Below, in pieces: positions 36,076-64,000 of a DNA stretch of 64,000 nt. This DNA is from Microthyrium microscopicum. Taxonomy: Eukaryota. Below the pieces are notes generated by a model. That model made no database searches, was not told where the DNA came from, and worked only from the letters and a program-made list of their open reading frames with translations. The position numbers were made by a program, and so were the translations under genes. Position 1 is the first letter of the stretch, and every line of letters starts with the position of its first letter. Location of the stretch: NCBI GenBank assembly GCA_010405405.1, contig MU004235.1, positions 1,192,538-1,256,537 of the forward strand, given 5' to 3'.

Positions 36076-36370
36076 TTATCTCAGTTCTCAGACCCTAACC
36101 CTGCCCGTCCGCGGGCTCCCTCCGCAGGAGGGTCTGAGGACAACTCGGATCTTTTTAGCGTGACGCGCTTNNNNNNNNNNGGTGCTGCTCCTCTTCCCTG
36201 CTCTCCGCTTTGCAAAAGCCCAGACAGATCGCCACCATCATCGTGGCCGATGAGCTGCGTTGGGCGTGTGCTCCTTTATCTCAGTTCTCAGACCCTAACC
36301 CTGCCCGTCCGCGGGCTCCCTCCGCAGGAGGGTCTGAGGACAACTCGGATCTTTTTAGCGTGACGCGCTT
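36076..36370 (+). repeat. Exact 95-bp duplication (36076-36170 and 36276-36370) either side of an N gap; putative element terminus/TIR
   Basis: ttatctcagttctcagaccctaaccc...gtgacgcgctt occurs twice with different left flanks; internal inverted repeat ctcagaccct/agggtctgag. Confidence 0.85.
36171..36180. other. Scaffold gap (10 N)
   Basis: nnnnnnnnnn in the sequence. Confidence 1.
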
Positions 36371-36491
36371 CGTGGTTGTTAGTAAATGCCTATATTATTG
36401 CAACCGTGTCCTCGCCACCAATATATATATATTTTTAATAATTCTACCATCATTGCAATCACCGTTTTTTCCTCTATCGATTCTATAAATT

Positions 36492-39400
36492 ATGCCTCCC
36501 ATTAGAAGTACGCGTCGTGGAGGAGGGTCTCATAGAGATAACCCAATTTCTACACAGACCAGGCGTACCTCTCTTCGGCAACAACAGCAGCAAAGGTAGA
36601 TTTATCTCTATAATAATAAAGAGTCTATATTTATGTATCTATAGCAATACCACAACCACGACAGATCCCGCGAATACCTCAAGTAGGATTCAACATGAGC
36701 CTAACAATGCCGAACCATCAGGTCCTTCACAACCAGCGGCGACGACAACACCACGGCAGAGCCCAAACTCGGCCAAAAAAAAGCTCACTGTGATACTTAA
36801 ATGTATTCGAGATCAGAAGATGTCAATGAGATCGTTTCTTCTATCGTGGGCTGGCCAAAAGGATAGTCATAGCAAGATTGTCCTTGATAACGACAAGTAT
36901 GCCAACGTTATCGGTCGCCGTACGCTCTTGAAGGATGTTATAGAACAGTTATCAAGTGATGGGATTATGCCAGAGTATCACACTGATTCTAGACTATGGA
37001 CAGAGTTTCGCGCCCTCGCAAAACTTACAGGTTTCAACCGCTTCAGTAGTAGAGTAGACGGTACGAACATCGACTTCAAGAAAGCCATTAAGAAGATGAG
37101 GAACACTGCACCTATTTGGACAGCCTTCCTTCATAAACTTATGCGCAATCGGGACCACAAGACATACAAACGGAGTGACAAGCCGGGATGGAAGCTCATG
37201 TATATGATCACAGCAATCATTCTTCATCGGCGGAGTAGAGAGACAAATAACTATCTGGCAGCGACGCTTGGTGTCTATTTGCTCGGGTCGGGTGTGAAGA
37301 GACGGGTTATGGACTTGCTAGCAGCTCTTGGAGTATGTACTGGTTATAAGACTGCACTAAGGCATATGAAGAAGGTTTCGAGACGGGCCTTGGTATGTAA
37401 CGGTACTATGCTTAGTATTGAACATGAGATCTTGCAAGATCTTTGAACATGTTGCAAGATCTTTGCACATCTTATAACATCTTCGCACATGTTGCAAGAT
37501 CTTTGCACATCTTATAAGATCTTTGAAAATCTTAAGTTCATAACCTTGAAAGACCTTATGCATTGCTAACGCCCAATATATAGAGAAACATTAGACGACG
37601 CGCACTAAACCGTCGGGCTGTCCTATGTTACGACAACATGAACTTTGCATCTCGCAAGCGCAACGAGATAGTAGGCAATACTGCAAGTATGGCGGCCGTT
37701 ACTACTGCTATTATCGCGATCTGTCCATCCTTACCTCCAGGAGGACTAACACAAGATATGCACGATCCAACAAAGGAGTTCGACTGGAAATCAATACAGG
37801 AAGGCCCATTAGTAAAGGCCGATGGCCAAGGAGGTGAACATGTCAAAACCATTAGCCGGTGCCTTATCGTGGACGCTTTGAAACGCGGCATTCCGGATAT
37901 CATCAAACCTTGGATTGCAAAGCATAAAAAGGATAAACACTGGCCTGGCATGCCAGACATTGATATACTTGCACCACACAAGACAGAGTTTGATCAGCTC
38001 GGCGCTATCATGGAGAACGAGGGAACAACAGATGGTACTTACCGAGTACACGATGAAATCTTCTTACGACATTTCGGCTTCCCAAAACCTCCAATCAATG
38101 ATGCAGGAGACGTGGCCTCATCATCCGATATCACAGCGTCTGTTCCATCCTCTCCACCTAATTCTGGACCAGACGCCTCTTCATCTAGTGTGGCCTATTC
38201 GTCTTCTGGCCGAACGTGCAGCGGGAGTTCATCCGTCCATCATATCTCTAGCCAGGACGGATCTGACGTAGATATGTCTGAGAATGCATCCCCGTCTAGC
38301 AGCGGCCCTGAAGACAATAACCACAACAATAACCACAACAACGAGTGGATTGATGTTGAAGACGATAACGCAAGCGAGTTTGATGATAGTGAAATAGGAG
38401 AGGCGTCTGACAAAGAAGGCAGCACAGACATTGAGTCTATTAGCGACACAAGTGCGTCTCCTAATCCTGGACGCGGTATTCCTCCAGTAGATTCCGTACC
38501 AGCATCGTCATCCAGCATCTTGGGTACAGTTAGCGATGAAAACTCTACTGATGGTTCACAAGCGTTGGATCCAAGTGCCAGGATCTTCGGAAAGAGGCTG
38601 TTTCTTACCCATGGTGATCAGTTAAGCACAAAGATCAACCGCTCTATCAAGGCCGAGGCATTCAATGAAACACAACCGTACGATTCGAGGAAGTTCCTTC
38701 ATCCGGTTCCTGGGTGGTTCCATATATACATGAACTACTTCTTCCACATTGTTCGAACCCATTGGGATTCCTCCGAGGTCGATACACCGGCTCCACATTC
38801 TATTATGCACGACGTTAGTGTATGGGGACGAAGCTGCAGAAAGCGCGACAATGCCCAAACCCATCAGGTTATTCCTGTCTTGATACAAGGATTTAGTAGT
38901 AGAGTCCTGGCGTTGTTTTTGCGGAGTCTGGACCGGAAAGGTCACTGCCCTGGGCGTGTTGATGATTCATTCTTTGCCGTCCCAGAACTACTCAAATCCT
39001 GTATCAATAGGTTATCCATGGAACAGTTCGACGAGATCATTGAAGATGTCCGTCAAACAGCCTTCACGAGAGAAGCATGGGACGGGCGCCCAGATGGGAG
39101 TGATGATATCGAGTTCCGAACCATGTGCCGGTACTTGCAAGAGATTGAGTTGCTCTTAACTATGCGATATGCCCTTCGATATGGCGATATTGGACTTTTG
39201 CGCCTCCTGGTTGATCCCCTAACCATTCACTTTTATGGCACTGGTCAGAACAACTATGGGGATGAGATGCTATGGCTCAGGTGGAACTTATCTGATGTGA
39301 ATACTCCTGAACTTCAAAGGTCTATCCTGGCCTCGAGCTTAGTCAACTGGGAAGGCCGTAAGAACTCCTTTAAGCCTATGGATCTAGGACTGGAGCATTT

Positions 39401-39920
39401 GAATGGCAACTGCAGTAGAGACATGAAGTCGTTTGGTAACTCGACTCACGACGTTGAGGCAACATTCAACAGAGTCTGCCTCTGTAATACGTACATGCGT
39501 CATTTACAAGACGCATTTGCGCGTGCGTTCGTGCGCAAGGCCAGTAACAAGCATACCAACGCTAGTGCGGAGCATGATATATTCTTGTTATGCCAGAATC
39601 TGATCAAAGATGGCCTTGCGGAGTCTCGACCCCAGTCCGCAATCGAGAACTACGGCCCATATTATGACTCGCCAGATGTAAAGAGGATAGGACTTGACAA
39701 GCTTGACATCAAAGCCGAGTCTTTCAATCGCAAAACCACTATCAGGCAAGATCATATGGGAAACAACATCACAACCAGGCCTATTGACATTCTTGACCAA
39801 GACGTTGATAGTAACGACTTGGATGTACGAGAAGAGGTTGCGATGGAGGAGACCATGGGCGATGTATTGTTTGACGGAGATGATCCTGGCGCATTCGAAG
39901 CCATGGAAGTTGATTTGTAA
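36492..39920 (+). CDS. Academ/DUF6589-like DDE transposase, ~1062 aa (exons 36492-36595, 36645-37392, 37584-39920)
   Basis: In-frame splicing at GT-AG sites; motifs G.YL..SG.KRRV.D.LA.LG.C..Y, YDNMNF, ENEGTTDG, HGDQLS, PVPGWFHIYMN, GDIG, NY..E, LVN..G....P.DLGLEHLN. These match the D-D-E pattern I recognise from DUF6589/Academ proteins. Confidence 0.8.
37421..37533. repeat. Perfectly 10-bp-periodic array (~11 units, core A(G/C)AT(C/G)TT) inside transposase intron 2
   Basis: gatcttgcaa gatctttgaa catgttgcaa gatctttgca catcttataa catcttcgca catgttgcaa gatctttgca catcttataa gatctttgaa aatctt. Confidence 0.92.
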
Positions 39921-39983
39921 ATATGCATTTATTTAAGGTTTCTGCTTCGGTCGTGATTCGTGCAAGGTCAAAATTATGGCAGG

Positions 39984-40066
39984 ATGTGATAGGATCTTAT
40001 CTGTTGTGATATAATCTGATTAATGTTAGAAAATGTTAGATGATGTGAGATGATGTTAGCCAATAG
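39984..40066 (+). promoter_or_regulatory. Phased WT(C/G)T array + CCAAT cassette (copy 1)
   Basis: About eight ~10-bp-spaced atgt/atct/ttgt motifs ending in gatgttagCCAATag. Confidence 0.65.
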
Positions 40067-41084: not shown

Positions 41085-41362
41085 GTGGGTATCAACGGCG
41101 CTGTATATTGCGTCTTACGCTGGCCATTAACGCCAACTCGGTGGGATCGATTGCTCGGGTATCGAAGTCGTCGATTTGTAGACAGCGTAGCTGGCGCGCT
41201 GCGCTAGTCAGCAATGCTAGTTCTGTCGGGTCGATCGGCTGTATATTGGCTTCATCGCAGGGCGGGTGAACAGCGCGGCTGGCGCGCTGCAGTAACCATC
41301 AATGCCAGTTCTGTGGGGTCGATTGGCTGTATCTTGACTCCATCGTAGGGCAGGTGAAGAGC
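41085..41362. repeat. Diverged tandem array, ~88-bp unit, ~3 copies
   Basis: acagcg(t/c)(a/g)gctggcgcgctgc...aatgc(t/c)agttctgt(c/g)gggtcgat(c/t)ggctgtat at 41182 and 41270, with a weaker copy upstream. Confidence 0.75.
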
Positions 41363-41869
41363 ACAATTGGGTGTCTTTGGTTCTGTTGATTGTCGAAGTT
41401 GTTTTGCTAGCCTCTGTGTTAATTCTTTTAACTTCTTGCTGTATAAACATTCAGCGGGAAGCTATGGCAGCCGGAAGTAGCAAGAAGAGTGCTATTGGAG
41501 AAGTAAACATGGTGAAGTTTGAGAGTGTTCTGAGCATTGTCTGAGAAGGAAAGAGGATAGGCGAGAAGAGTAATGTGAGTGAAGCAAATGGAAAGTTATA
41601 ACCAAATAACGCACTTGCTAGCTTGCTCATCCTTTTCTTTTAGCAAGATCTTCACCTTCCTAATGTTTAGGTACTACGTATCGGTGTAACCTAGACCGCG
41701 ACCACCAATTGCCCTACGCATTGCTCCCGACTCGGTGGCAGTTCTCTCTAATTACCGAATAGTCGTTGGTGACGTTTATATATATATGTTGCCGAGGGAG
41801 GGAGCCGCGGTGGCATGTAGGCGGATGGCGGAGTAGATCCGGTGGGCCTGTTAGACGTTGGACGTTCAC

Positions 41870-43480
41870 TTCTTGCCAAGGTCGTTGTTAAAGCGAGATG
41901 CTAGCTGGCTCTCTTGGGTATTACTCTCTCTGAACAACCGACGGGTAGTTTCGAGGTTCGTTGTTTCTTGTGATAGATAGACCTGGAAGGCACATGTACC
42001 GTTCGAGGCACCCGTTCGAAGACCGCCTACGTAGCAAGGTAATGACTCCAGAACCTTACTGAAGTAAAGGTCGATGAGCATGCTGTTTATGTACATTTGC
42101 GTCGATCGGCAAGAAAGACTGCACCTGGGTCTAATCATGAGTGTTGATATGAATGATCATGACAGGAGATAGAGAGAACCTTACTAAAGTAGAGTTCGAT
42201 GAGCATGCTGTTCATGTGTTTGCGATTGATCGGCAAGAAAGAGCGTACGTAGGTCTAAATCTGGGCTGTTAACATGACTATTCATGTCAATCGATAAACA
42301 GGGAAGGAAACTGACCGGTAAATGTCCGTGTGGATTTGAACTCTGGTGATGCTAGATCCAGTGGCCGTAGCTCATATGCCGCTTCGTAGTGTGATATAAG
42401 CAAGGAATCAGGGAGGGTTTGATAACTGTGGTTTCCTCTACATCTAACAGGATATTCGCGAGTCATAAGGTCATAGCATTGCCAGCTGCTTTGGTTGCTG
42501 CAATTACTGGGGAATCGGGCAGTGCATGCCTACCGTGGAAAGGAAGAGGTAATCGTAGCGGTTCGCGTGTTCTCTCGCACCGCCGTTTATGAAGAATGTT
42601 CTTTGCCGCTTGCTCCTCATAGCGGTCACGGTTCGGACGAGGTTGAGGAAGGATAGGGCCGCAGTAAGGATCTGTACTTGAGACATGTATGTAATCCTCC
42701 CAACGTAGATGCATCATCTACCTCTATGGGTCTCTTTGGGAGGGTTAGTCTGTGCAAGAGTACCTTCAGCCTTGGATGCGTCTTCTACCTCGTCTTGGCC
42801 TATTTGGAAGTACTTCCTGGAGAAGAGATAGAGGTAGAAGATGCATCTACGAGCTTAGAGGCGACGTATCCGGTACGAGCATTGATAATAGAACTGCTAA
42901 GCACTTTGGCTTGCCCTACACAGGAAGAAGTACGGCAGTGGCCCACCTGGATGGGACGTTGATCTGCCCCCTACGGAACCATGATTAGTACGGATTGTCT
43001 GAAGTGGTAGGCATAATCCCATCGTTTTTTCATACTTATTCTACATGCCTCTCGACACCGCTTATATTTCACTTCTTCTATCACTCTGGTATCTGCCACC
43101 GCTTCCCACCCACGTGTATTGCCGTTGTCCTCCAGTCGGATTACGTTGATTGAAGCCAAAGTCCTAGTTCAAGTGTGTCCCGTGCTCTACTTCTGTATTG
43201 TTGCATAACGTGTGTTCCACGTTGGGCGAAAAGATGATAGAGCCAATGTTGGATAGTGACTGTCTTCCTCGTAGATGGTTTCGATATATCGTGCGAGATG
43301 TGGACAGGGAAAGGACCGATGCCAGAGCGATAGAGGTTGTGGGGAAGTATAGAACGAATATAGGTTATGATGTGAATGCGCGACAGGTACCTAGGATTTT
43401 AGCAAGTGCTTAGCAAGATTATATAATGGAGACTTCGCGCGTAATTTGGGTTTGTCTTACCTGGCAGGAAATATGCTCTT
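41870..43480 (-). pseudogene. Probable degenerate multi-exon cargo gene
   Basis: Minus-strand intron-like signals (e.g. gtatga...tactaat...tag at 43035-42971) flanking protein-like frames interrupted by TAG/TGA stops; bounds approximate. Confidence 0.3.
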
Positions 43481-43610
43481 TGAGGAGCTGTTTCCTAGCG
43501 TCCAGAACGAATGGGAATTGTGATTGTGGGTTGTTGGTAATTGTGGATTGTTGTTATCGGTAGACTGCCGGTCAGTTGGGTTGGTAGTAAGGTCGGTTTT
43601 ATTTTCGTCT

Positions 43611-43660
43611 GATATGATGCGATCTGATGTTGGAACTTGTTAGAAGATCTTAGCCAATAG
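43611..43660 (+). promoter_or_regulatory. Phased array + CCAAT cassette (copy 2)
   Basis: gatgttggaa cttgttagaa gatcttagCCAATag. Confidence 0.6.
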
Positions 43661-44199
43661 AATGCCAGGAATGGTTCTTTACCTTGGTAGTACGCAATAC
43701 AGAGATTTTGACTTACTCTCTTGCGGAGTTTACTATAGAATATCGACTTGACTGAGGCAGGACTACCTAACAATAACTAGAATGAGTGTGAGTAGGTATA
43801 AGCTAGCGGATAATTCGGTACGTATGACATTGGAGATTCCATCATAATTATTTTGTATATAGCTGTCTAAGGCTTGGAGTTAGTAGAGAACAATAAAGCG
43901 ACGAGAGAGATCCCGACTTACAGTCAAAGCGTTAGAGCTATTCCTTGATTTATGCCCAACTTGTCGTTATGCCGGAAAAGAATATGTTATTGAGCCAGTG
44001 CTGGATGCGGTTGTATGTCTTGTGGCCGCATGTTCTTCCTTGGGTTTTGGTTTCGGGCTCATTCGCGTAAGCTGAACGAGTTGCAAATGCTTGTATATTA
44101 CTTAGTCGTTGCAATGTTCAGGTCTGCTGCACTTCCGGCCCGTCGATCTCATCCTGGCGATCGATTGTTATGCAACCGGCGTAGCTTGTTGGGACAATC

Positions 44200-45190
44200 A
44201 AGGCCAATGTTCGACTCACTAGCTCTAGCAGTCGAACGTTGCGTAGCTTGCGAAGTTGGTGTACTTGGCTAGGCCAGAATGGTTTGCCCCAAGCCCGTCA
44301 TTCTCGCTCTGGTGGTAGAAGGTTGCGAGCTTACGAAGTTGGTGTACTTGGCTAGGCCACAATGGTTTGCCCCAAGCCCGTCATTCTCGCTCTGGTGGTG
44401 GAAGGTTGCGAGCTTGCGAAGTTGGTGTACTTGGCTGAGCCAGGAATGGTTTGCCCCAAGCCCGTCATTCTCGCTCTGGTGGTGGAAGGTTGCGAGCTTG
44501 CGAAGTTGGTGTACTTGGCTGAGCCAGGAATGGTTTGCCCCAAGCCCGTCATTCTCGCTCTGGTGGTGGAAGGTTGCGAGCTTGCGAAGTTGGTGTACTT
44601 GGCTGAGCCAGGAATGGTTTGCCCCAAGCCCGTCATTCTCGCTCTGGTGGTGGAAGGTTGCGTAGCTAGCGAAGCCGCTACAGTTGGGTGGGTGGCTAGC
44701 ATGACAGCGCTGGTTTGTTCCAAGCCTGTCACCCTCCTTCCAGTGGTTGATTCGCTATGTCGCTGGCGAAGCCGTTGTAGCTGGGTAGGCGGCTAGCATG
44801 ACAGCAATGGTTTGTTCCAAGCCTGTCACTCTCGCTCTAGTGGTCGAACGTTGCGTCGCTGGCGAAGCCTTGACAGACGGCTGTCGCGTCGAAGCACCAC
44901 AGCCATGGTTTGTTCCAAGCCTGTCACTCTCGCTCTAGTGGTCGAACGTTGCGTTGCTGGCGAAGCCTTGACAGACGGCTGTCGCGTCGAAGCACCATAG
45001 CCATGGTTGTTTTAGGTCTGTCTGTCAAGGCTCTAGTGGTCGAACGTTGCGTTGCTGGCGAAGCCTTGACAGACGGCTGTCGCGTCGAAGCACCACAGCC
45101 ATGGTTGTTCCAGGTCTGTCTGTCAAGGCTCTAGTGGTCGAACGTTGCGTTGCTGGCGAAGCCTTGACAGACGGCTGTCGCGTCGAAGCG
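44200..45190. repeat. Tandem array of ~10-11 related units (spacings 83, 84, 84, 84, 96, 97, 98, 98, 98 bp)
   Basis: Anchor (a)tggtt(t)g at 44279, 44362, 44446, 44530, 44614, 44710, 44807, 44905, 45003, 45101. Confidence 0.95.
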
Positions 45191-45489
45191 CGTCGCGAAG
45201 CCATTGGAAGGGGTGAATGTGGCGAGTTTGTACTGGTTGCCAGTTGGTGAGAATATATTGGCCGTTGCCGTACTACCAGGAATAAAGGCCTGGTATGTTG
45301 TTAGTCGTAAACCAAGATGGTCAGCCAAGGAGGTACTGCTTACATCAAGACTTCCAACTGCTCAAAGCCTACAGTCAGATAAGTTGTAGTGGAGCTAGAG
45401 GTGACATAGAATTGGTGTCTTTCTCTCATAGAGAGAGGTTGGAACTTCAATGTTGGAAGTGACGTCTGGAGCGTTCTACGAGGGTTGTC

Positions 45490-45580
45490 TTATATAGTAA
45501 CCCTTAAGTTTGAAGGCATCCTATTGGTCCACATCTTCGAATATCTTCTAATATCTCGTCAGAATATGAAAGATCTATAA
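45490..45580 (-). promoter_or_regulatory. Phased array + CCAAT + TATA cassette (copy 3)
   Basis: Minus strand: agatct..attct..agatat..agatat..agatgtggaCCAATag, then ctatataa ~25 bp downstream. Confidence 0.65.
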
Positions 45581-47544
45581 TTAAATAGCAATAACTTCCC
45601 TAGACTGTGCCTTTCTAACTTCTCAACGCAAGTGAGATGTACTAATCTCTACTACTCTGACCGTCAGCGCCTTGTTTAAATGTAGCATACTATATCCAAG
45701 CAGCTCCGAGTCTCTTGCTTGGACCTAGGTTGTTGTAGTGGATTAAGGCGTTGGGACTAGAGTCTGCTAGATCATATCGAGTAGATGCGACTTTGATTGG
45801 TCTACATGCTGTTGTTGCTTTCGGTGGAGGTATGGCCACGTCTGAGTAGAGATGTTTCTCGATAGAGCAGTAGATGACACATTCGAACTTTTGAGGTTTC
45901 AAAGTCTGAACGATTAGAAGCGATATTAAAGCCCGGAGTAACTCTGTATCCGATGGAAGGAAGCCAACAAATCGTGTAAATTTAACCGCTTGAGCTTTTC
46001 AATGTTTTACTTCTTCTACTTCTTCTTCTTTAACACACGTCTATACAGAATATTAGCAGAAGAGTCAACAAACAACCAATATACTTTACTAAATACTCCC
46101 ATATCACAAGACAAGTCGTCCTCGCATCTTTTGGCCTTGACATCAAGCTTTACACCCTCTTCAACCTATTATGATGAGTTCAAAGACGTGCCGAATGGTG
46201 GCATATCGACCCGTCATGATAATCTAGCACAGAGCACGCGTGTTTACCAAGCAAGTCGTTGAAGTGGCATTCATGCTTCAGTACCTCCTTTGAGTGCTGC
46301 GGGAAACCCTTTAGAACTCAATCATGGTGCAGTCCTCCCGTAAAAGCTCCCGCCAGGTCTTGGAACAACATCTGTTGACGAGCTCGAAAAGTCGTCAACA
46401 GAGGCTGCGAGCTCGTTAGGGATTTGACCAGGTATCAGTGTAGCGATTGGATTTGACAAGCTCGCAAGAATATTGCCGCGAGCCATCTATCATTTTGTCT
46501 CGCGAATACTAGGGGCGGTCTCCATTAGTTACATCATTTCAATATCAGAACTAAGGACTTACAGGCATCCTGAGCATATCTCCACACCTCGATCTACTCG
46601 CAGGCACCGTGAATAGCATCACGTTCTGGACGCTATGATCCAAAGACTCCGTCTGCGTGTGAAGCACTTGCTACGTCGCAACACCGTTAGCCACAGTTTT
46701 GAGAACGGCTGCGCCAAAAGGGCCAGCGTCCAAAAACCAATTCCATGATAGATTGCAGAACTTCTTCCCGTGAACTAATGACAACAAATGTATCTTCAAT
46801 CATTGTCAGCGAGTTAAGGGATGCGCCATAGTGCACATGCTTCACTTTGCTATATCTGGGATTGTCAAGGGGGAAAGGATAAGCGTACCGTCAGCTATTG
46901 CTTAGTTCATGGCGTACAAGATTGAACGGGGCTTAGATAGGCATGCTATAGCGATTGAATTCGACCACAAAGATCTTGTCTTCAGCCATTAAGCTACAAG
47001 TAGTACTGGTTTAGTATGGAGACTCAATGTTTCTAAGTCTCTAGATTGTAACAGAGTTAGTATACAGAAAGACTGCGTTTAACATATTAGAAGGATGATA
47101 CTTACCTTAAACTCTAAACCTTAAATATTGCAACATCGATATCCATTCCTAGAGAACTAGAGCTTGCTAGTTTATAAGATAGTGCTATGATCTCGCGTTA
47201 AAGAATACTTAAATAAGAAGATGTAGCTTTCAAGAAGTTCTGTACTACAGTTCAACATAAAGAAAAGATAGAGACGGATTTGGTATACAAGTGTTTAACC
47301 ACGTAAGTGATTCAGAATATAAGTTTTCAGAATAGAAAGAAACATAGCCAACGAAGGGGCTAGCAAACGGCAATATAATTGACTGCGTAATCTGCTATCA
47401 TAACTCTAGGGGATAAGGATGTTTGGGAAGAAATAAACGATACGCGCTGCTGGGCTGCTTACCGCATTACTTAGACTTTAATGAAGATGTACCTTTGAAT
47501 ACAGCGCCAAAGAAAAAGGTAGTCCTATTGTCGTTGGGTACTCC

Positions 47545-48065
47545 GCCGCATTTCTTGATGGACCATGACAAGGAAGTATTTGGCAGCGGTACTGTGAAAA
47601 ACGAGCGCGAGTAAGGATGGGCGGTGTGCCGTGTCTCTTGATGGTCTATAACAAGGAAGTATTTGGCAGCGGTACTGAGAAAAACGAGCGCGAGTAAGGA
47701 TGGGCGGTGTGCCGTATCTCTTGATGGTCTATGACGAGGAAATATTCGGCGGCGGTACTAAGAAAAACAAGCGCGAGTAAGGATGGATGATATGCCGTGT
47801 CTCTTGATGTTTAAGAACAGGAAGATATTTGGTAGCGGTCTGAAGGAAAAACGAGTGCGAGTTGTAGTATGCGATATGCGGTGTCTCTTAATGTTTAAGA
47901 GCAGGAAGATATTTGGTAGCGGTCTGAAGGAAAAACGAGTGCGAGTTGTAGTATGCGATATGCGGTGTCTCTTAATGTTTAAGAGCAGGAAGATATTTGG
48001 TAGCGGTCTGAAGGAAAAACGAGTACGAGTTGTAGTATGCGATATGCGGTGTTTCTTAATGGTTG
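47545..48065. repeat. Tandem array, 83-84-bp unit, 6 copies in two subtypes
   Basis: Anchor (a/g)gcggt at 47585, 47668, 47751, 47834, 47918, 48002. Confidence 0.95.
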
Positions 48066-48239
48066 ATAAGTTAGCAACAACTTGCAGTGGGTACTAAGAC
48101 ATAGGAAATATACGTATCATTGGCTACTGAAATGCCAGTTAATGGCCCATAATAAGAGCTTCGTTTAAGGTGATCTTTACTACGCTAAGGAGTATATATC
48201 CGTAGTTGACATGTTGGTTTACTGTTAGGCATTGAGGAG

Positions 48240-49693: not shown

Positions 49694-49790
49694 TATTATA
49701 CGCTAATGATTAAGTCTCGCTAAGAGCTGTTTGATTGGACTAACATCTTTGCACAACTTGAAACATTATTTAAGAACGTCCCATATTATC
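49694..49790 (-). promoter_or_regulatory. Phased array + CCAAT + TATA-like cassette (copy 4)
   Basis: Minus strand: gttctta aataatgttt caagttgtgc aaagatgttagtCCAATca, then tataat ~35 bp downstream. Confidence 0.65.
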
Positions 49791-52904: not shown

Positions 52905-53250
52905 GTTGGCGCAAAGAACACTGTTTCATCGTCGGAATGGGCGATGAGGAGGATGATGCGCTTATTGCGGAGGATAGGAGGTACGGTGGATGTTTCATGG
53001 GCGCAAAGAACATTGCTTCATTGGCGGGACGGGCGATGAGTAGCACGATGCGCTTCTTTCGGAGGGCGGGACATGTAATGGATGTTTTCATAACGCAAAG
53101 AGCATTGCTTCATTGGCGGGACGGGCGATGAGGAGCACGATGCGCTTGTTTCGGAGGGTGGGACATCTGATGGATGTTTCCATAACGCGAAGAGCATTGC
53201 GTTGTTGGCGGGATAGGCGATGAGGAGCACGATGCGCTTGTTTCGGAGGG
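52905..53250. repeat. Tandem array, 92-bp unit, ~4 copies
   Basis: Anchor (g/a)ggcgatgag at 52939, 53031, 53123, 53215. Confidence 0.92.
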
Positions 53251-53639
53251 TAGGAGACGCCCCATGATTCTTCCCAAAGCCGTGCAGAGTCTGTGTTTTT
53301 GTAACGATATACTGTTGTAGTTGTTGGCTCGCCGGATACACTTGCGGTGGTTATTGCGGGCTGGTTGGTGGTTCCTATCGGCCGAGGAAAAGATGGTATA
53401 GAGGGTAGTGGTACTCGGATCAGATAGATGTTTCAAGGGCGCGAAGAGAACAGTAGAAGTACTGGCAAGGGTATAGAATTCGAATATCAGCGCAAGAAAT
53501 AAGAGAGGCAGTTTATAAGATAGAGGACAGGAGATGTGGGGGCAAAGACTGGTAAGGATTAGAAGTTGATGCGGTATTAAAAATTAATGGGTTGGGAACT
53601 AGATAAGATATGGACTATATGATCAGAACTAAGGTAAAT

Positions 53640-53692
53640 GATTGGCTCAGAAGTAATAACATCATCTAAGATCTTGAAAGATTGTTACATAA
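53640..53692 (-). promoter_or_regulatory. Phased array + CCAAT cassette (copy 5)
   Basis: Minus strand: atgtaacaat ctttcaagat cttagatgat gttattactt ctgagCCAATca. Confidence 0.6.
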
Positions 53693-54344: not shown

Positions 54345-54590
54345 TGCCAAATATTCCGTCAATTTCCAGAAGTTGGTAACGATTACACAAAATACATATC
54401 TGGCAGTACTTCCATGCAAAGTCCCTTCACTAAATATCTTGTCAATGTCTCGATGCTAGCGGTGATTTTACAAAATACGCCACTGGCAATGTGCCCATCA
54501 AAAGCCCAATCGTCAAATTCTTCATCAGTCACTGAATATTAGAGGCGACAACGCGAAATACAAAAGCGGCAACACCTCCCATTGGAAGCC
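54345..54590. repeat. Highly diverged tandem array, ~84-bp unit, ~3 copies
   Basis: Recurrent aaat..tca..aaatac..ggca..cca skeleton at ~84-bp spacing. Confidence 0.45.
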
Positions 54591-55329: not shown

Positions 55330-56420
55330 TCACGACCATGTGCTTCCTCGTGGGTTGAGTACAGCTGGAAGATCGGCCATATCAAGGAAAGGAGCGTGAA
55401 ATGTTGGCGGCGGGAGGCTAGTATCGATCATTGGAACTGATCCAGGTGGCGCGGTACCGTAAACCCATTCTCCGTCTCCTGAGGCGGGCAGATGAGGAAC
55501 GACGTCTTCGAAACTGCAGTGTACGCCATCCCACATACAGCACGCACATTGACCATTTCGATGTCCAGGGAGATTAACGCACCCCATCATCGCTGGCCAG
55601 TCGATTTGGGACCGAGAATGAGGAACTGCCGCCGGGCAATGGGACAGGCATCGGGTGCATTTTCGATCAGCTGTGTGGTATTTCCCGCGACTGTATAAGA
55701 CCATGGCTTCGATAAAGACACCAGCGATCTCAGCACCAGACTGCTGAAAGATTTGAGAGAACAAGTCTGCCATTGGGTGCGGGATGCCGGACTTTCTAAT
55801 CGCACATACACGAAACGGGTTACCGCTTCCTGCGAGAAAACCATTTGGACGGGGAGGAACCGCCCAGAGTCGCCATAAGCCTGGGTCCTGACTAAAGGTT
55901 AGTGAAATGATTCGCAATTGGAAGAATATATACTTACGTTCACGATCTGGACTAAGACCTGGAAGATATAACAGGTCAAAGGGTGGTGGAAATCGATTTG
56001 AGCATACTGGCTATTGTTTGGTCCCCAGCGAACTAACTGTCCACCCGGATTTCGCACCGTCACCTGTCGCCAAGTAGGGAGTGAGCTGTTATCCTTCAAT
56101 CCGAGCGCAACACAAATGGCCGTCATGGTAGAGAGCTGAAAGGGCAGGCCAATCCGACCGAAAGGACGTCGCGCGTTGACGTCGGCTTGATGTCGCACAC
56201 GCGCAAGTGTCTCCTGATGCTTTCTCTCCTGGCCCAATACGAAGACAGCATAATGGTATGACATGAGTGCCACAGGAATGAAACTACGCCAATCGAAATT
56301 GGCTTTGGTCTGAGACTCAGACCATACTGCGCGGGGGGAGAAGTTCTGCTCATAGAACTGCCAAATGCTCCAAACGATGAGGGGCGCGTGGAAGTGAACC
56401 CAGAAGCGGAGGCCAGGCAT
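55330..56420 (-). CDS. ~346-aa two-exon protein with C-terminal DUF3716-like Cys cluster
   Basis: Exon 56420-55938, intron GTAAGT..ACTAAC..CAG, exon 55887-55330; SRG..RKCTRC...GCVNLPGHRNGQCACCMWDGVHCSF. Confidence 0.7.
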
Positions 56421-57949
56421 GGTGCTGACAATGGACGTGGTTTGAATTATGGGTTGGTTATTGGGGGTGTAGTGCTCGAAGTTGTTGTTATGGTTTGGAG
56501 TTGTGTTGGGATTTAAAGGTCGAGAGGTTCTTAGTGGGTCCCACGCCGTCGCCTAGGCAGCGTGATTGGACAACAACCACGAACCGATGATGTCAATAGC
56601 TTCCCTTCCAAAATTATGAAGACTGAAGACTGATTCATTGGGCAGTTTGGGTAGCTGGAAAAGCACGAATACGCGCGAGTGTACATCCATGGAGCTGAAT
56701 GGAAGTGTAAGTCGTTGGAACGTGATTGCAGGATGGAACTTACAGCTTTCTCGTTACCAAGCTGACAGACAGCTGAAGACTGAAATAGAATTGCCTCTCC
56801 CAGCGCGAGTAGTAGGAGGAAGCGCCAGGCAACAGCAAATTATGAAAGACAAGAGATCCTCACTTCAAAGGTTGGCGGACGAGAGTCTGCGTTGATAGCA
56901 CTGGGTGAATGAGGTCAGTTCTTGAATAGACACGGCACAGTAGAACTTACAGTCTTTCGATATGAGGCTGAACACGAGACACCATCGCAGCATATAGTAG
57001 GCAGCGCAAGTAATCAAAGCAAATGAAGATGAAGAAGTCCTCACTCTCAAAGGGAGTGAGGAACTCTAATGGAGAGTCAAAGAGTGGTGTGAAGAAGTGA
57101 TGGAGGTGTAGACAAGTGGAAGGGTTTTATAGACAACAACCTGATCAAACGGCTGCCTGCTCAGCAAGGGATGAGTAAGAGCGATCAGCGCGGCTGCGGA
57201 TTACAATGTGACCCAAGCTGAAGTGGTGAATAACTGTATGACCATCGTTGTGTGACGTGATAGCCTTTACCAGCGTGATGTTCTGAAGAAACCTTACGAT
57301 TGATGCACCATAAACGGCAACGATGTCTACGAAAATAGTCATCTTTCCGTAGCAATAGCAGTAAGTGCAGGCATCAGTGACATTGAAAGAGTACATGGAA
57401 GCTAGGAACTCGCAGTGTTGATAGAAGGACGCAGACCAGAACGGCCAAGAGCAACGACAGTTGGTAATTACGGCCAGAGCATTGATATCAGCTATTACAG
57501 CGACTGAATATATAGAAAAAGGCAAGGAAATTATAGTTCTAATAGACAGTGATCTCTACAAGAAGAAGTTGCCTTCTGCCAACATAAAGTAAGGTATGGC
57601 GAGAGCAAGGGTTTCAGGGAAGGCAAGATGATGAACACAAGTATCCAACACAAGTAACAACTTGACGGGTATCAAGGAACTTACTTATCTGATTCCATAA
57701 TTTGATATTGACACACAGCGAGTGCGCAGAGCCCGTCCAGTAGTCTCCCAGTCGACGGTAACAAGCAGCCAGTAACGGATAGACCAAATCAGTGTTGGAA
57801 GTGCTGTCTCTACGACAGAAAGACTTGGCCAAAGTCTAGCAAATAAGAATGGCGGTATTAGCATCACGGGGGATGCGTAGCAGATATAACAGTAGCTCTT
57901 CCAAAGCTGAACTATTGAGAGTGGGGGCTGCATAATCGAAGCCAAGGAT

Positions 57950-57995
57950 GCTAGGTTGATTTTCTTAGGACATGTTGGAAGATGTTAACCAATAG
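57950..57995 (+). promoter_or_regulatory. Phased array + CCAAT cassette (copy 6)
   Basis: tttcttagga catgttggaa gatgttaaCCAATag. Confidence 0.6.
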
Positions 57996-58575: not shown

Positions 58576-60084
58576 TTAAGTCGACGCACTGGCCGAACCT
58601 CCACCAACGGGCAAAATCGCCACGAACTCCCCACGTTCCTTCGGCAATCTTCCCAACGCCCCCTTCTTCCCAGTCGGTGTATTCACAGGTCCGACTATAC
58701 TGCAACCACCCTTTAGCGGCCCTGCCGCACGGCACCGCGAACACCGGAACCCAGGTTTTTTGAGAACATTTCTCGCCTCCGAAATGTATGCTCGGCACAC
58801 ATAACCCCTAAGCTGGCAACGCTTACAAGCGTCATCACCAGTCAGAGTCTCACCAGCATCCGTCTCTTCTATACGACCGATATGAGTCGCCTTACGCTTC
58901 TGGTCGGGCGACATGGCCTCCCACTGGTCAACGGTCACTGACCAGAAATAATCTGGTACGAGAGGGCGACTCAAAACATCGCTGCTCTCGTGAAAATGCC
59001 AAGGGATTTTCTTGACCAAACCGCAGGCCTTGGCAACGGCCATGGCCTTTGAGTTAAAAGACCCAACCGGGCCTAAAGAGGAGGCCTCTGCGATAGCGGC
59101 TGCTGCGCGAGCTGCAAGTGAGGCTTTTGCAGCTTCAACTTCCTCGTCGAAGTCTGCATAGGTGGTGCTATCGTGAGCACCGGCGGGAGAAATTGGGGCG
59201 GCAGGAGATGGTAGGTCGAGAGGAGACGGTGTGGCAGCACGCGCGGCAAAGAAGTTCGCAGCGCGAGAAAAAACTCCGCCAAAATACGGCACGCCGGCCA
59301 ACCAAGGAGAAGGGGGAGAGGGAGGAGGAGAGCCCCAAGGCGTCCCAGTGGAAGGAGCAGCAGAGCTCTCTCGAGAGCGGAGAGGAGAAGGAGACCGAGA
59401 AGGCACAAACAAATCGCGACCATCATCTTCGTCGTGATTGTCGTCGTAGACCAGCGTATCATCCCCATCCCCATCCCACATATACGAATCCTCCTTTTCT
59501 GCAGCAGGAGGAGCCTTTTTAAAGGCGAGCGAATCCTCCTCTTGCAAGGCAGGCAAATCGCTATCAAAATCGGCGGACAACGCCAAGGACTCTCGCCCAG
59601 AAGAACGCGAGAAAGCGGGCGAAGCAAGGTATCCGCGCTCATCCGAGAGCTCGGGCTCAGACGACGACGGTTGTTGAATTGCGCCTAGAGGCGCAACCGC
59701 GCGAGAAGACCGCTGTGGTGGTGGTGGCGGTGGTGGAGGAGAGGAGGGAGGAGTAGGTGGATTTGAGGGTGGCGAGCCCCAGACTACCGCCCATTCTTCT
59801 CGATCATCATCACTATGATATTGTCAACATCATTATTTGCGATTCAAAAGCAAAGGAACATACTCATCAGCGTCGGGAAGAACGTCCAGGAGGTCTACGC
59901 GCTTATCGTAGCGCGAACGTGTCTCTCGTCGACGGACCGTTCTAGATTCCCTGACGACCGCCGCGTAGGCTTTCAGGCCATATATCTTTTTTTTACCCTC
60001 AAAATTATGTTCGAACGGGTTGGTGCGAATATACGGCGCATCACGGCGCACTAAATGTGCTGGAGGCTGGTGATATCGAGGCAT
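58576..60084 (-). CDS. ~485-aa two-exon Pro/Ser/acidic protein with C-terminal CxxC-x6-C...CxxC...C zinc-cluster-like motif
   Basis: Exon 60084-59864 splices (GTATGT..TTGAC..TAG, 59863-59813) in frame into the 336-aa ORF; ACKRCQLRGYVC...FRCSRC...GGCS. Confidence 0.7.
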
Positions 60085-60300: not shown

Positions 60301-60352
60301 AGTGTGAAGTTCTGGCAAATTGTGCAAAGTTCTGCAAAGATGTTAGCCAATC
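60301..60352 (+). promoter_or_regulatory. Phased array + CCAAT cassette (copy 7)
   Basis: gttctggcaa attgtgcaaa gttctgcaaa gatgttagCCAATca. Confidence 0.65.
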
Positions 60353-62040: not shown

Positions 62041-62110
62041 ATGATATATTTGAATTTGTGGGATTATCTGATTTGATCTTAAATGATCTTGGTTGATGTT
62101 AACCAATCAG
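62041..62110 (+). promoter_or_regulatory. Phased array + CCAAT cassette (copy 8)
   Basis: atgatatatt tgaatttgtg ggattatctg atttgatctt aaatgatctt ggttgatgtt aaCCAATcag. Confidence 0.65.
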
Positions 62111-62211
62111 AGGGCAGCATTTTACCAATATCAGATACAGAGTAGGCAGCCCGCCAGGAGCACGGAACTCTGCGTACCAGTATCAAAAGACACACCAAGC
62201 CAAAGCAACGA

Positions 62212-64000
62212 TCAGTCAGGAAAGGCGGTGTTATGCCTCCCCTTTTCCGTAAGAATTAATGAACGCCCGATACGCGTTTTCTGGATGTGGCTCAACCCAA
62301 CAGTTCCCTGTCGAGCTCTCTTCTCTACTTGTTTAATACTAGCGACACTCGGCGACCGGGCAGCTCTTTTACGACCAGGTGGTGTGCTTGAAGTGTCTCT
62401 TGCTTGCCCGCTGGCTCTAGCCTGGGTTGAGCCGACGGGCAACTCTGCGAGAGCACTACGACGTGTAGTTCTGCTGGTAAGCGGAGATATGGGACTGCTT
62501 GGCTCAGAATCCTCAAGAATTGTGGTATCGACCATAGCCTGCGACGCACGGCGACGAGAAGGCTTGGGAGCCAGAGAAGAGGCCAACAGTCCTGGAGCTG
62601 AACTAGACATTGGCGCAGTACTAGATGTGCCCATCGCCTGAGATGGCAAGCCGCTCTGGCGACGCCGTTTTTCGTCCCGTTCGCGCGCTGTAGCTTTGAA
62701 ACGAGCCTCGATGTCAGTCTGGTCGGCTTCTCGCCGCTGTCCAATGGCCTCATCGGTGTCCTCGGCCGAGTCAATCTCAATTACTTGTCGATTGGCAGAT
62801 TGAGATGCGCTCTGGCCTCTCGTCGCCTCTTTTTGTTTCCTGCGTTCCTGCCTCTGTTGCTCGAGTTCAGTAAACCTTGTGGGTACCAGAACGGCCAACG
62901 CCTCAAGCTTTTTAAGCAGGTCTATGCTATGGTCATCATATTCATCCCAGTCATGAGGAAGAGTTGCTTGACCCTTTAACCAATCCCATTCTATTGGGGA
63001 TGGCAGGTTGCTGAGCTTAGTAGCACTAGAGAAGATATGGGCCAACTGCCATTGAGTATGACGGCTTAGCACTGTAAAAGACGATACACCATACTTAGAC
63101 ATAGCAGAGGGTGGATGTAATCTCCGTGCCCAGTCTTGCGCCCAAGCTGTAATCTCTTCTAAAGCAAACCAGCCACGACTATTGAGAGCTGGAGGTTTCA
63201 GTTCGGCCAATTTGTCTTTGCGAGGAGCAATCTCCGGAAGTAACAGGGCTGGGTTACATCTATTACAGCAAAGTAGCGGATCTCGAGCTGGTAAAGATGG
63301 CATCTGATCTTCACCAAGAAACTTCCAGATTACGACGCGGATACAATCAGCGTTTGCCAAATCATGGAACTCCTGGGGAGTTTTCGCTCGTTGCTTAGTC
63401 TCGGGTTTGGAAAAGAACTCTATCTTCTTTGACTTCTTTTGCTTCCCTACTGTATTCTGGGTTGAAGGTCCGGCCCAAGACGAACTAGCCACGGGAGATT
63501 CTGGTTCAGTAGATTCTCGTTCTACATCAGCGAGGCTATTTTCGCTAATGTCTGATACATCGCCTGGTGTCCATACTTGCGATAGAGGATGCGATGAAGC
63601 TTGCTGGGAAAGAGCCTGCTGAGACTGATGTTGTCGTTGCATAGCGCGATGCGATGAAAGCATATGACGCGTAGCAGTTTTCCGCTGGCGCGTTATAGCC
63701 GTACTGGGCTCAGGTGCATCCTGAACAGGTCGTTCTTTTGCATATTCATTATGCAAGTAATATGGGAGCCAAATTTCGACCGTACCATGGTCACCTTCAC
63801 CTCGCGCGCCACGACCAGCGCGCTGCCAGAGATCCAGCATATCGTAACCAATCGGTATTTTCCAAATGATGATAAGCATGACACCAGGAATGTGGCAGCC
63901 AAGCCCAAGACAAGTGGTCGCTACCATAATTCGAATCTCGGAGTCGGGTTTGCAGAAAGTGGTATAGCGGCGATTTTGATCATACTTGGATGACCGAGAC
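62212..64000 (-). CDS. RecQ-like superfamily 2 helicase, C-terminal part (5' end beyond the window)
   Basis: Frame open to the window edge; IRIMVATTCLGLG (motif V), WQRAGRGAR (motif VI), then CIR...CCNRC (RecQ Zn-binding-like), a helical HRDC-like region and a disordered tail. Confidence 0.88.
   Translation of the reverse strand, partial: SRSSKYDQNRRYTTFCKPDSEIRIMVATTCLGLGCHIPGVMLIIIWKIPIGYDMLDLWQRAGRGARGEGDHGTVEIWLPYYLHNEYAKERPVQDAPEPSTAITRQRKTATRHMLSSHRAMQRQHQSQQALSQQASSHPLSQVWTPGDVSDISENSLADVERESTEPESPVASSSWAGPSTQNTVGKQKKSKKIEFFSKPETKQRAKTPQEFHDLANADCIRVVIWKFLGEDQMPSLPARDPLLCCNRCNPALLLPEIAPRKDKLAELKPPALNSRGWFALEEITAWAQDWARRLHPPSAMSKYGVSSFTVLSRHTQWQLAHIFSSATKLSNLPSPIEWDWLKGQATLPHDWDEYDDHSIDLLKKLEALAVLVPTRFTELEQQRQERRKQKEATRGQSASQSANRQVIEIDSAEDTDEAIGQRREADQTDIEARFKATARERDEKRRRQSGLPSQAMGTSSTAPMSSSAPGLLASSLAPKPSRRRASQAMVDTTILEDSEPSSPISPLTSRTTRRSALAELPVGSTQARASGQARDTSSTPPGRKRAARSPSVASIKQVEKRARQGTVGLSHIQKTRIGRSLILTEKGRHNTAFPD

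Follow-up and report, generated by a model that had tools for sequence, protein, structure and literature searches.

The window analysed here is a 64,000-nucleotide stretch of DNA from the leaf-litter fungus Microthyrium microscopicum. From position 36076 (or 36276) to past 64000 it holds a transposase gene and a helicase gene arranged tail to tail, with 22.3 kb from stop to stop. The features that frame this segment are as follows.

36076..36170, plus strand: left terminus, copy at flank X, opening with TTATCTCAG, followed by CTCAGACCC, a loop of 32 nt and GGGTCTGAG as inverted partner; these 95 nt are the last of the contig
36171..36180: scaffold gap of 10 N, directly after the first terminus copy
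36181..36275, plus strand: flank Y, 95 nt, which differs from X and precedes the same terminus
36276..36370, plus strand: left terminus, copy continuous with the element body
36492..39920, plus strand: DUF6589 DDE-type transposase gene, 1062 aa, exons 36492-36595, 36645-37392 and 37584-39920
58579..59823, minus strand: ORF3, the family's third conserved gene, with homologues between helicase and transposase in relatives
62212..64000, minus strand: RecQ-like SF2 helicase gene, last 595 codons and stop, with codons 1-488 and the presumed right terminus further on, outside the window

The three conserved genes

The spliced transposase product is 100% identical to a deposited 1062-aa protein, which matches Pfam DUF6589 with an E value of 8e-62. 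An earlier note, made from the letters of this DNA, had described an intact DDE-like gene of three exons about 200 bp inside a repeat and had pointed to DUF6589 as the family to compare. This is borne out, with the ATG 216 nt in from the start of the second repeat copy. Named homologues come from Histoplasma, Rhinocladiella, Sclerophora and Modicella (Ascomycota and Mucoromycota). In the alignments D301 is conserved in 40 of 42 sequences, D629 in 63 of 66 and E888 in 64 of 65. Their placement in the structure model, on strand 1, after strand 4 and on a helix, makes D301/D629/E888 a candidate catalytic triad.

The model has a mean pLDDT of 75.4, with a core above 90. Among the best 50 rows returned by VIA-align almost all are transposases, integrases and Argonaute/RNase H-fold nucleases (Z 8.0-4.7), headed by Hermes (Z 8.0, 307 residues), Tn5 (Z 7.9) and the P element (Z 7.5, 359 residues), where Z 7-8 is a range that the tool describes as common. 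At the sequence level, a profile search of the PDB gave 0 matches, and Foldseek gave none at E <=0.001. The model shows an RNase H-like transposase fold, and the DDE assignment combines this fold with the conserved acidic residues and with TIRs and target duplications, the last two as seen in relatives.

The helicase ORF, with its stop codon at 62212-62214, is cut by the end of the window and covers residues 489-1083 of a protein of 1083 aa. DEAD (E 1.9e-12) and Helicase_C (E 1.3e-7) domains are present, together with a VAIDECH motif, and the relatives of this helicase carry RecQ-type names from their sources. Thus, a RecQ-like helicase does face the transposase at the distance first noticed. 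ORF3 has the motif HIGRI-ET and six cysteines spaced C-x2-C-x6-C-x17-C-x2-C-x9-C. In five related loci (L005, L006, L009, L039 and L043) a homologue is found at this position and on this strand, and such a small Cys-rich protein between helicase and transposase is a feature of one subfamily.

Termini, relatives and the probable unity of the element

The two 95-nt terminus copies are 100% identical, and it is immediately ahead of TTATCTCAG, where the family terminus starts, that flanks X and Y diverge. Logan flank contigs end at 36102/36103, and further flanks join at 36076. Because the 10 N follow directly after the first copy, the repeat pair straddles a scaffold join, and the terminus appears twice because the gap joins two different flanks to it. 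Flank Y probably borders a second copy, or else is a short spacer behind a solo terminus. We rejected the repeat as a tandem feature of the element, since it is one terminus written twice around the gap, with two flanks. What the earlier note said of a terminal repeat therefore stands as to two identical copies of a family terminus; the pair itself is a scaffold-gap duplicate, the 10 N having been overlooked. The right terminus and the own target duplication of the window copy lie beyond base 64000, and about 28 kb of it is visible.

The relatives are 80 metagenome loci found with the helicase as query. A convergent DUF6589 gene stands beside the helicase in 18 of the 80, at a spacing of 0.06-6.8 kb. 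It is present in 11 of the 16 loci that reach at least 3 kb past the helicase match, the other five having no detectable transposase. Five relatives are complete (L009, L012, L054, L039 and L043). They measure 7.7-9.6 kb and pair transposase and helicase within shared TIRs, both ends reading 5'-TTATCTCA(G/T), then CTCAGAC and, 30-140 nt later, GTCTGAG. The terminus at 36076..36170 has this same layout, and judged by sequence the window's 95-bp repeat is the terminus of this transposon family. L039 and L043 represent two copies whose ends are identical and whose flanks differ. Target duplications of 8 bp abut both ends in L039, L043 and L054, with seven of eight bases matching and one transition mismatch in each. 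None was seen at the intact-looking L009 and L012, for which we assume chimeric metagenome assembly. The end of a host gene of the tryptophan pathway lies some 130 nt beyond the L006 terminus.

The two genes can be assigned to a single element family because the convergent pair recurs, the 95-bp repeat is the family terminus, and ORF3 and the CCAAT cassettes described below lie in the interval. The terminus motif was not found between 36.4 and 64 kb, nor was a helicase or transposase fragment found between the two genes. We suggest that the segment from 36076 (or 36276) to past 64000 is probably a single copy of a TIR-bounded, cut-and-paste DNA transposon whose family encodes both the transposase and the RecQ-like helicase. 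That the two enzymes share one element, rather than each having its own termini, had been proposed from the window alone. The transposase would cut at the TTATCTCA ends and insert with staggered 8-bp cuts, and the helicase may help DNA unwinding or repair in transposition.

The enlarged interior

Compared with the complete relatives, the window copy is supported as one giant element of about 30 kb, 3-4 times their size, in line with the earlier expectation that it is far larger than described AcademH elements. Its bloat of about 18.6 kb lies between the transposase 3' end and the ORF3 3' end, a slot that is also variable in relatives, where it carries minisatellites of 71-109 bp. The interior and its surroundings contain the following.

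37429..37534, plus strand: 10-bp-phased array of the ATCTTGCAAG type in transposase intron 2, with CCAAT next at 37573-37577
37984..38608, minus strand: two introns (37984-38042 and 38519-38608) removed in an RNA contig within transposase exon 3
40021..40064, plus strand: cassette 1, phased 10-mers and TTAGCCAAT, about 100 nt past the transposase stop
41182..49203: minisatellite zone with 80-125-bp units (41182-41362, 42050-42286, 44234-45189, 47545-48063 and 48241-49203)
42131..47462, minus strand: spliced RNA with thirteen introns of 49-278 nt
43624..43658, plus strand: cassette 2, within the minus-strand intron 43624-43682
45515..45570, minus strand: cassette with GACCAAT at 45527
49728..49783, minus strand: weaker cassette, 10-mers and GTTAGTCCAATCAA, with TATAAT about 35 nt downstream
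50783..52447, minus strand: 554-aa ORF with a Cys-rich C-terminus, covered whole by one unspliced RNA contig; weak DUF3716-like signal (E 1.4e-3, below cut-off)
52910..53255: 92-bp minisatellite, 3.8 copies
55333..56552, minus strand: two adjoining ORFs, the lower with a weak DUF3716-like Cys-rich motif
57959..57993, plus strand: cassette 3, TTAACCAAT, past the ORF3 3' end
60307..60351, plus strand: cassette 4
62073..62107, plus strand: cassette 5, about 105 nt past the helicase stop and directed into the helicase gene; counterpart at L005 3441/3564

The extra 18.6 kb consists of minisatellites, CCAAT cassettes, the spliced minus-strand RNA and the two weak DUF3716-like ORFs. A Pfam scan of its ORFs found no recognisable host cargo or captured gene, so the description "cargo-carrying" is not sustained. 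Among the 148 ORFs of at least 60 aa between 39.9 and 62.2 kb none has a credible Pfam domain. The sole matches are repeat-peptide artefacts of translated minisatellites, in which no single stretch passes alone, and the interval is indeed free of recognisable housekeeping genes, as had been noted. The two interior ORFs reach 19.0 and 17.0 bits against PF12511 (DUF3716), for a cut-off of 22. ORF3 has no match to this model, and its L005 homologue gives E 0.078. Aligned by hhalign, the ORF3 profile and both interior ORFs give E 0.06-0.08, and the nearest ESM-Atlas clusters, which serve as leads only, are DUF3716 (0.88 and 0.89).

In the RNA at 42131..47462, eleven or twelve of the 13 introns have GT..AG and CTAAC-type branch sites. 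After splicing no ORF above 185 aa was found in it, and it is apparently non-coding. The intron at 38519-38608 has minus-strand GTAAGA...CTAAC...AG signals, so that transcript is antisense to the transposase; the long spliced minus-strand RNA continues antisense through the transposase gene.

The motif TTARCCAAT occurs six times in the window, always on the plus strand and within 40056-62976, against an expectation of 0.98; none of 100 shuffles reaches six. Phased 10-bp units of the GATNTT type precede five of the six. The sixth, at 62976 within the helicase ORF, is unphased and probably due to chance. The phased-CCAAT run reported from the transposase intron to the helicase 3' end thus holds for these five and for the intron 2 array, and fails at 62976. 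The array has a counterpart at L009 8492-8521, and the position of cassette 1 matches L009 6455 and L005 5663. Cassettes were found in exactly the five ORF3-bearing loci and in none of four loci checked that are without ORF3. We hypothesize that they serve as promoters or regulatory modules and that the host CCAAT-binding complex reads them together with an element-encoded factor, most likely ORF3. This conserved cassette of phased 10-mers and CCAAT, which co-occurs with a Cys-rich protein of the element, is open to bench tests. At the nucleotide level the interior is not similar to relatives; what ties it to the element is these short cassettes and its position. The filling of the bloated copy would be the element's own kind of sequence.

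Contig depth at the left flank is 1023.7 in run X3 and 112.6 in run X1. The interior contigs, one of which is an 8075-nt contig beginning at 53222, have depths of 1767-2003 and 207-236 among the eight matches listed per run, about twice the left flank. These are contigs of two runs from one sample, possibly the assembly's own source, and depth is not itself a copy number. The ratio suggests two near-identical copies of the unit in the genome, which bears on the earlier call to look for other copies. The whole unit of some 30 kb would be present about twice, in almost identical form and at separate sites, and would have moved recently as one piece.

A broader reading, which we regard as speculative and rather doubtful, is that of an undescribed, distinct lineage with a DUF6589 transposase, a RecQ-like helicase, a Zn-cluster-like ORF3, TTATCTCA ends, 8-bp duplications and a regulatory system of its own. 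Here the cassettes, with element-specific 10-mers phased along one face of the helix beside a host CCAAT box, would be portable promoters read by ORF3, convergent antisense and long non-coding transcripts starting from them would throttle the transposase, and a modular promoter-plus-minisatellite system would have let one copy inflate to about 30 kb yet transpose.

It is unlikely that the locus is instead an ordinary element of about 9-10 kb, swollen by nested insertions and minisatellite growth and now dead and immobile, with the doubled depth due to segmental duplication or assembly collapse. The size of the relatives and the dissimilar interior would fit this, as would L006, the one larger relative (>13.2 kb), with a retroelement-type SH3_Tf2-1 fragment in the same slot. 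Depth, which covers the left flank and the interior, cannot separate transposition from duplication. However, all three core genes are open, flanks X and Y part at the very start of the family terminus, element-specific cassettes lie deep inside (43654, 45527 and 49735), and neither a transposon protein domain nor long bounding repeats were found in the interior.

It is very improbable that two unrelated insertions are involved, with repeat-rich host DNA separating an element that has only the transposase (36-40 kb) from one that has the helicase and ORF3 (58-66 kb). Though the genes are 22 kb apart, the right end is outside the window and some long helicase loci have no transposase, the convergent order of helicase, ORF3 and transposase is the family norm. 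The lack of a terminus motif between them also speaks against this, as do the uniform contig depth from 36.6 to about 61 kb and the presence of the same element-specific 10-mer cassette on both sides but nowhere in 1-36 kb, its periodicity score being reached by only one of 230 CCAAT sites in window positions 1-36000. Least probable of all is an assembly artefact in which pieces of several copies and repeats were chained into one scaffold: there is the gap with duplicated sequence at the left end, other parts of the genome hold numerous variant contigs that are 90-99% alike and show C>T and G>A changes, and every minisatellite breaks the short-word Logan contigs, so that continuity there rests on the original assembly, but the window has no N besides the one gap, RNA contigs splice over 42.1-47.5 kb colinear with the assembly, and in two runs independent Logan contigs agree exactly with the assembly over long stretches and overlap at their ends (37488-42790, 42762-44306, 45177-47625, 49091-51239 and 53222 onward).

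Comparison with known transposon systems

Among the systems closest to the single giant transposon that we favour is AcademH, which was reportedly defined by Kojima in 2020 in Mobile DNA 11:15. Passages in PMC10045372 and PMC10799480 describe AcademH as TIR DNA transposons with a DDE-type transposase and a RecQ-like SF2 helicase, and PMC10799480 names Ascomycota and Mucoromycota as fungal phyla. Our element likewise has a RecQ-like SF2 helicase (DEAD and Helicase_C) and a DDE transposase inside one element, is of low copy number (about two by depth ratio) and has homologues in these two phyla. The target duplications differ, being 9-10 bp in PMC10045372 and 8 bp here, as measured on L039, L043 and L054. 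The AcademH passages of these two papers mention neither ORF3 nor the CCAAT cassettes, and the size of about 30 kb compares with a mean of 5.6 kb for curated bivalve Academ elements given in PMC10294476. Academ had no Pfam model in 2017, according to a passage in PMC5751038, and the one paper found to mention DUF6589 makes no link to Academ. Thus, membership in AcademH is unproven. DUF6589, a domain of unknown function, gains a context of transposase fold, ends, target duplication and partner genes.

Helitrons have an HUH nuclease fused to a Pif1-type helicase and are without TIRs and target duplications, and Kolobok duplicates TTAA. The present element shares with Helitron and KolobokH, the other helicase-bearing DNA transposons named in a passage of PMC10799480, that a helicase travels with the transposition enzyme, but here the helicase is RecQ-like and has its own gene, facing that of a DDE transposase.

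In structure, Hermes (8edg) and the P element (6p5a) are the best and longest matches of the window transposase, whose model also has an RNase H fold interrupted by a large helical insertion. Target duplications in hAT and P are 8 bp, as in the relatives here. In contrast, no sequence similarity to the window transposase was found, and to our knowledge hAT and P families encode no helicase.

Starships are giant elements of Pezizomycotina that are moved by a tyrosine recombinase, with a DUF3435 captain as the first gene. In the present element the first gene is a DUF6589 transposase, and no DUF3435 was found in the ORFs scanned over the 28 kb from 36 to 64 kb, so that for the part seen the earlier view that this is not a Starship holds. 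DDE transposase, short TIRs and 8-bp duplications set it apart further, as does the lack of recognisable host-benefit cargo. What they share is great size as a mobile unit of an ascomycete genome, inserted as a discrete piece with sharp ends. Giant fungal mobile elements are, as far as we know, currently almost synonymous with Starships. If our reading is true, helicase-bearing cut-and-paste elements can also become very large, and this locus is a natural case for how much DNA such a transposase moves. This significance is based on a unit of about 30 kb with intact transposase, helicase and ORF3 genes, on its likely presence at two sites, and on a junction that falls exactly at the family terminus.

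The transposase and its partner helicase

We suggest that the best reading of this stretch is one giant element, and we consider this reading fairly probable. Its main features are listed below.

Main features of the element in the window
36076-36170: first copy of the 95-nt terminal repeat
36276-36370: second copy of the repeat
36492-36595, 36645-37392 and 37584-39920, plus strand: three exons of the transposase gene
58579-59823, minus strand (the helicase strand): ORF3, the third gene of the family
ending at 62212, minus strand: helicase ORF

The earlier note had proposed an intact three-exon DDE-like gene with a helicase facing it, and this proposal is borne out. The 760-aa product of exon 3 is 100% identical to a deposited 1062-aa protein of Microthyrium microscopicum (BT63DRAFT_440007), and the transposase matches DUF6589 of Pfam (E 8e-62), which is treated as a domain of unknown function in the literature searched. 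The helicase ORF encodes the last 595 residues of a protein of 1083 aa in which DEAD and Helicase_C domains are present, and the two stops lie 22.3 kb apart, tail-to-tail. About 50 closest relatives of the helicase are fungal or metagenomic and several sources call them RecQ-type; the RQC and HRDC domains of cellular RecQ are missing from them.

The AlphaFold model of the transposase, made with 66 sequences as input, has a mean pLDDT of 75.4, with a core above 90. A Foldseek search of the PDB gave no match at E 0.001 or better, and a profile search of PDB sequences gave 0 matches at E 10 or better. When the model was compared with 48,161 chains by VIA-align, the matches were mainly RNase H-fold enzymes, including Hermes (Z 8.0, 307 aligned, rmsd 7.1), Tn5 (Z 7.9), the P element (Z 7.5, 359 aligned), integrases (near Z 7) and RAG1 (Z 5.7). 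Because a Z of 7-8 is a common best score in VIA-align, the weight rests on the consistency of this list. Conserved acidic residues are D301 on strand 1 (40 of 42 sequences), D629 after strand 4 (63 of 66) and E888 on a helix (64 of 65).

The alignment of 24 helicase relatives was used to retrieve 80 metagenome loci, in which a transposase was sought by tblastn with five DUF6589 proteins. A convergent transposase is present in 11 of the 16 loci that reach at least 3 kb past the helicase match (in the other five this search found no transposase) and in seven shorter loci, giving a total of 18 of the 80. Three loci (L030, L045 and L064) have other layouts. The two matches are separated by 64 to 6788 nt in the relatives, and they overlap slightly in three degenerate copies. 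None of 99 helicase relatives is fused to DUF6589 (PF20231), and no protein among the best 150 DUF6589 representatives exceeds the query transposase in length. Since these convergent pairs have the same tail-to-tail layout as the window, they uphold the assignment of transposase and helicase to one element.

Termini, target duplications and copy number

The flanks of five of the retrieved loci have in common an outer inverted repeat, which opens with TTATCTCA(G/T). CTCAGAC comes about 10 nt after it, and the inverted partner of CTCAGAC, GTCTGAG(R)(R)C..TGGTG, lies 30-140 nt further in. GTCTGAG itself was ruled out as the outermost terminus, since homology and the second inverted repeat, TTATCTCA, extend further out.

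Element length and, where a duplication was seen, bases directly abutting the two ends
L009: 9560 nt
L012: 7662 nt
L054: 8224 nt, GCACTAAC/GCACCAAC
L043: 8661 nt, CCTGTTTC/CCTATTTC
L039: 8599 nt, GGTATTGC/GGCATTGC

One metagenome supplied L039 and L043 as two copies with identical ends and unrelated flanks, thus homology begins exactly at TTATCTCA. The target duplications of L039, L043 and L054 are 8 bp in length with one transition mismatch each. These three loci, which have lost their reading frames and have no long ORFs left, are old copies, probably degraded by repeat-induced point mutation (RIP), and they are useful because they were assembled with their true flanks. At the ends of L009 and L012, the genes of which are open, no target duplication was seen; we suspect that several near-identical copies have been merged into these contigs. 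Outside the terminus of L006, at a distance of about 130 nt, lies the end of a host gene that encodes an indole-3-glycerol-phosphate synthase and includes a glutamine amidotransferase domain. Beside the compact relative in L003 there is an ORF (8040-8570) in which a FAR1 DNA-binding domain scores below the cut-off (E 2.8e-4); this ORF may belong to a Mutator-like element.

In the window the 95-nt repeat starts TTATCTCAGTTCTCAGACCC, with GGGTCTGAGGAC 32 nt later, and this is the architecture of the relatives' termini. The terminal repeat that had been described from the sequence stands as two exact copies, with the qualification that a gap of 10 N directly follows the first. The 12-nt pattern G[AG]GTCTGAG[AG]AC is confined to this repeat within the window. 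A second combination of TTATCTCA and CTCAGAC was not found between 36.4 and 64 kb, and none of the 33 HSPs from a self-blastn of the window is a dispersed repeat more than 1.5 kb apart, so that the partner of the terminal inverted repeat is not visible in the window. The sequence beyond base 64000 was inferred from relatives and public sequencing runs. The stem loop of the terminus (36094-36103 and 36294-36303) includes CCCTAACCCT, equal to 1.5 units of the usual fungal telomere repeat, probably by chance.

Flank X, which precedes the first copy, and flank Y, the 95 nt between the gap and the second copy (36181-36275), have nothing in common as far as the last base ahead of TTATCTCAG. Logan contigs compared with 35001-55000 came from two DNA runs (X1 and X3), one RNA-like run (X5) and one run labelled as another organism (X6); X1 and X3 come from a single sample, which may also have been used for the assembly, and are not independent. 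The flank contig stops at 36102/36103, 27-28 nt inside the terminus, while in two further contigs per DNA run other sequence joins at 36076, and variant copies part from the window after 36349-36355. The depth of the flank contig is 1023.7 in X3 and 112.6 in X1; among the contigs listed, those of the interior have depths of 1767-2003 and 207-236, respectively, where contig depth is not the same as copy number. One interior contig of 8075 nt starts at 53222 and reaches about 61.3 kb. From these depths in two dependent runs, we read the whole interior as being present in about two near-identical copies on different flanks that the assembler did not separate. The doubled interior may instead reflect a duplication larger than the element, or, as an alternative, there may be a solo terminus in place of a second copy at the duplicated 95 nt. 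The loose-end consensus strings from the Logan contigs do not occur in the window, so the alternative continuations sit elsewhere in the genome.

The gene to the left of the element (32958-34892, minus strand) encodes a fungal-specific transcription factor (Fungal_trans, E 2.2e-20), and flank X from this gene to the terminus is single-depth DNA. Minor contigs of the DNA runs differ from the interior at 41628, 45609-45624, 47137-47189, 48878-48926, 49818-49826 and 52481-52507, almost solely by C>T and G>A changes. They show that further diverged copies or fragments of the interior exist, and the pattern fits RIP of older copies. In X6, 28 short element contigs of depth 2-4 fall in 37225-51377, 25 of which are at least 99% alike; X6 also has a variant of the 5' region of the transposase that is rich in C-to-T changes, and the 1.1 kb of left flank compared is not covered in this run. 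These contigs could come from carry-over, a mixed sample or the element in another host.

ORF3, filler and CCAAT cassettes of the interval

In tblastn with 252 proteins as queries, similarity to helicase and transposase is limited to 36.4-39.9 and 62.2-64.0 kb. ORF3 homologues lie between helicase and transposase in L005, L006, L009, L039 and L043. Since ORF3 has the same place in these relatives, the core order of transposase, ORF3 and helicase is conserved and the excess DNA of the window is 39.9-58.5 kb. The homologues have in common a HIGRI-ET motif and six cysteines (C-x2-C-x6-C-x16/17-C-x2-C-x8/9-C), the spacing of which resembles the fungal Zn2Cys6 pattern without agreeing with it. ORF3 has no match in Pfam.

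The excess stretch holds minisatellites with units of 80-125 bp. Minisatellites of 71-109 bp occupy the same slot in relatives, some of them made of the CCAAT cassette; in L006 the slot contains 7.8 copies of a 93-bp unit and a retroelement-type fragment. No nucleotide similarity of the interval to the relatives was found. The DUF3716-like signals of two interior minus-strand ORFs are weak, at 19.0 and 17.0 bits where the cut-off is 22, and the clusters nearest to these ORFs in ESM-Atlas, DUF3716 at 0.88, serve as a lead only. ORF3 as a paralogue of these two ORFs is unsupported by BLASTP or hhalign. None of the 148 ORFs of at least 60 aa in the interval has a credible Pfam domain. The earlier note was thus right that housekeeping genes are missing here, and its description of the element as cargo-carrying is not supported: what makes the element large is non-coding filler of the element's own type, not cargo from the host.

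X5, which shows spliced joints, is presumed to be RNA; among the listed runs that contain the element, none is on record as RNA. The joints, which remove 49-278 nt, are located at 42.1-47.5 kb, with two more inside exon 3 of the transposase, and 13 of the 15 among those listed are minus-strand GT..AG (shifts of up to 3 nt fit equally), most with CTAAC-type branch sites. Given the two joints in exon 3, an RNA of the minus strand runs antisense to the transposase. The reading of the spliced RNA as a hidden multi-exon gene was dropped, as the longest ORF is 185 aa and of low complexity after removal of the 13 interval introns, with 7 further joints left out. A 554-aa ORF (50783-52447) is covered by one unspliced X5 contig. 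Near-zero X5 cover at 49675-50341, just upstream of a minus-strand cassette, was discarded as a transcript start, being an absence of cover in one study's contigs.

The recurring phased-CCAAT motif noticed at the outset is confirmed: TTARCCAAT has six sites between 40056 and 62976, all on the plus strand, against 0.98 expected, and 10-bp-phased units precede five of them. Cassettes, i.e., 10-bp-phased 10-mers with CCAAT, were identified by scoring the 40 nt that precede every CCAAT/CCAAC for a 10-bp period.

Cassettes in the window
40060, 43654, 60347 and 62103, plus strand: strong
45527, minus strand: strong
57989, plus strand: weaker
49735 (49728-49783), minus strand: weaker

In the control region 1-36000, one of 230 sites reaches the cassette score, and this is a CAATC microsatellite (23464-23494) unrelated to the element. 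The window 10-mers are of the GATGTTAG type. L005, L006, L009, L039 and L043 have 4-8 cassettes each with a different 10-mer of the GAACTCCTGN type (GAACTCCTG in L009), and this score found no cassette inside L003, L012, L023 and L054. In these nine loci the presence or absence of cassettes is exactly that of ORF3, where the five positive loci are related and do not represent independent events. The cassettes of L009 and L005 are placed in sense upstream of all three genes and just past the 3' ends, pointing back; those at 40060 and 62103, after the transposase and helicase stops, are placed like the latter. We suggest that the cassettes could be promoter or regulatory modules, bound by a host CCAAT-box factor and an element-specific factor, for which ORF3 would be the obvious candidate. 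Two cassettes fall inside introns of the minus-strand RNA (43624-43682 and 45548-45599), and GATGTTAG read on the minus strand is CTAACATC and includes CTAAC, the branch-site consensus of fungi.

Relation to known transposons

We conclude that the element belongs to the helicase-plus-DDE kind of transposon, as a new and unusually large form whose right end is not yet seen. It is not a Starship. As described in the relevant passages of two papers (PMC10799480, PMC10045372), AcademH is the helicase-encoding Academ lineage of animals and fungi, is low-copy in Basidiomycota, Ascomycota and Mucoromycota, and generates duplications of 9-10 bp. The earlier suggestion of an AcademH-like element agrees with these passages in gene content and distribution, whereas the relatives' target duplications of 8 bp depart from the length given there. 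Because content and distribution fit and the duplication does not, we call the element AcademH-like in architecture alone.
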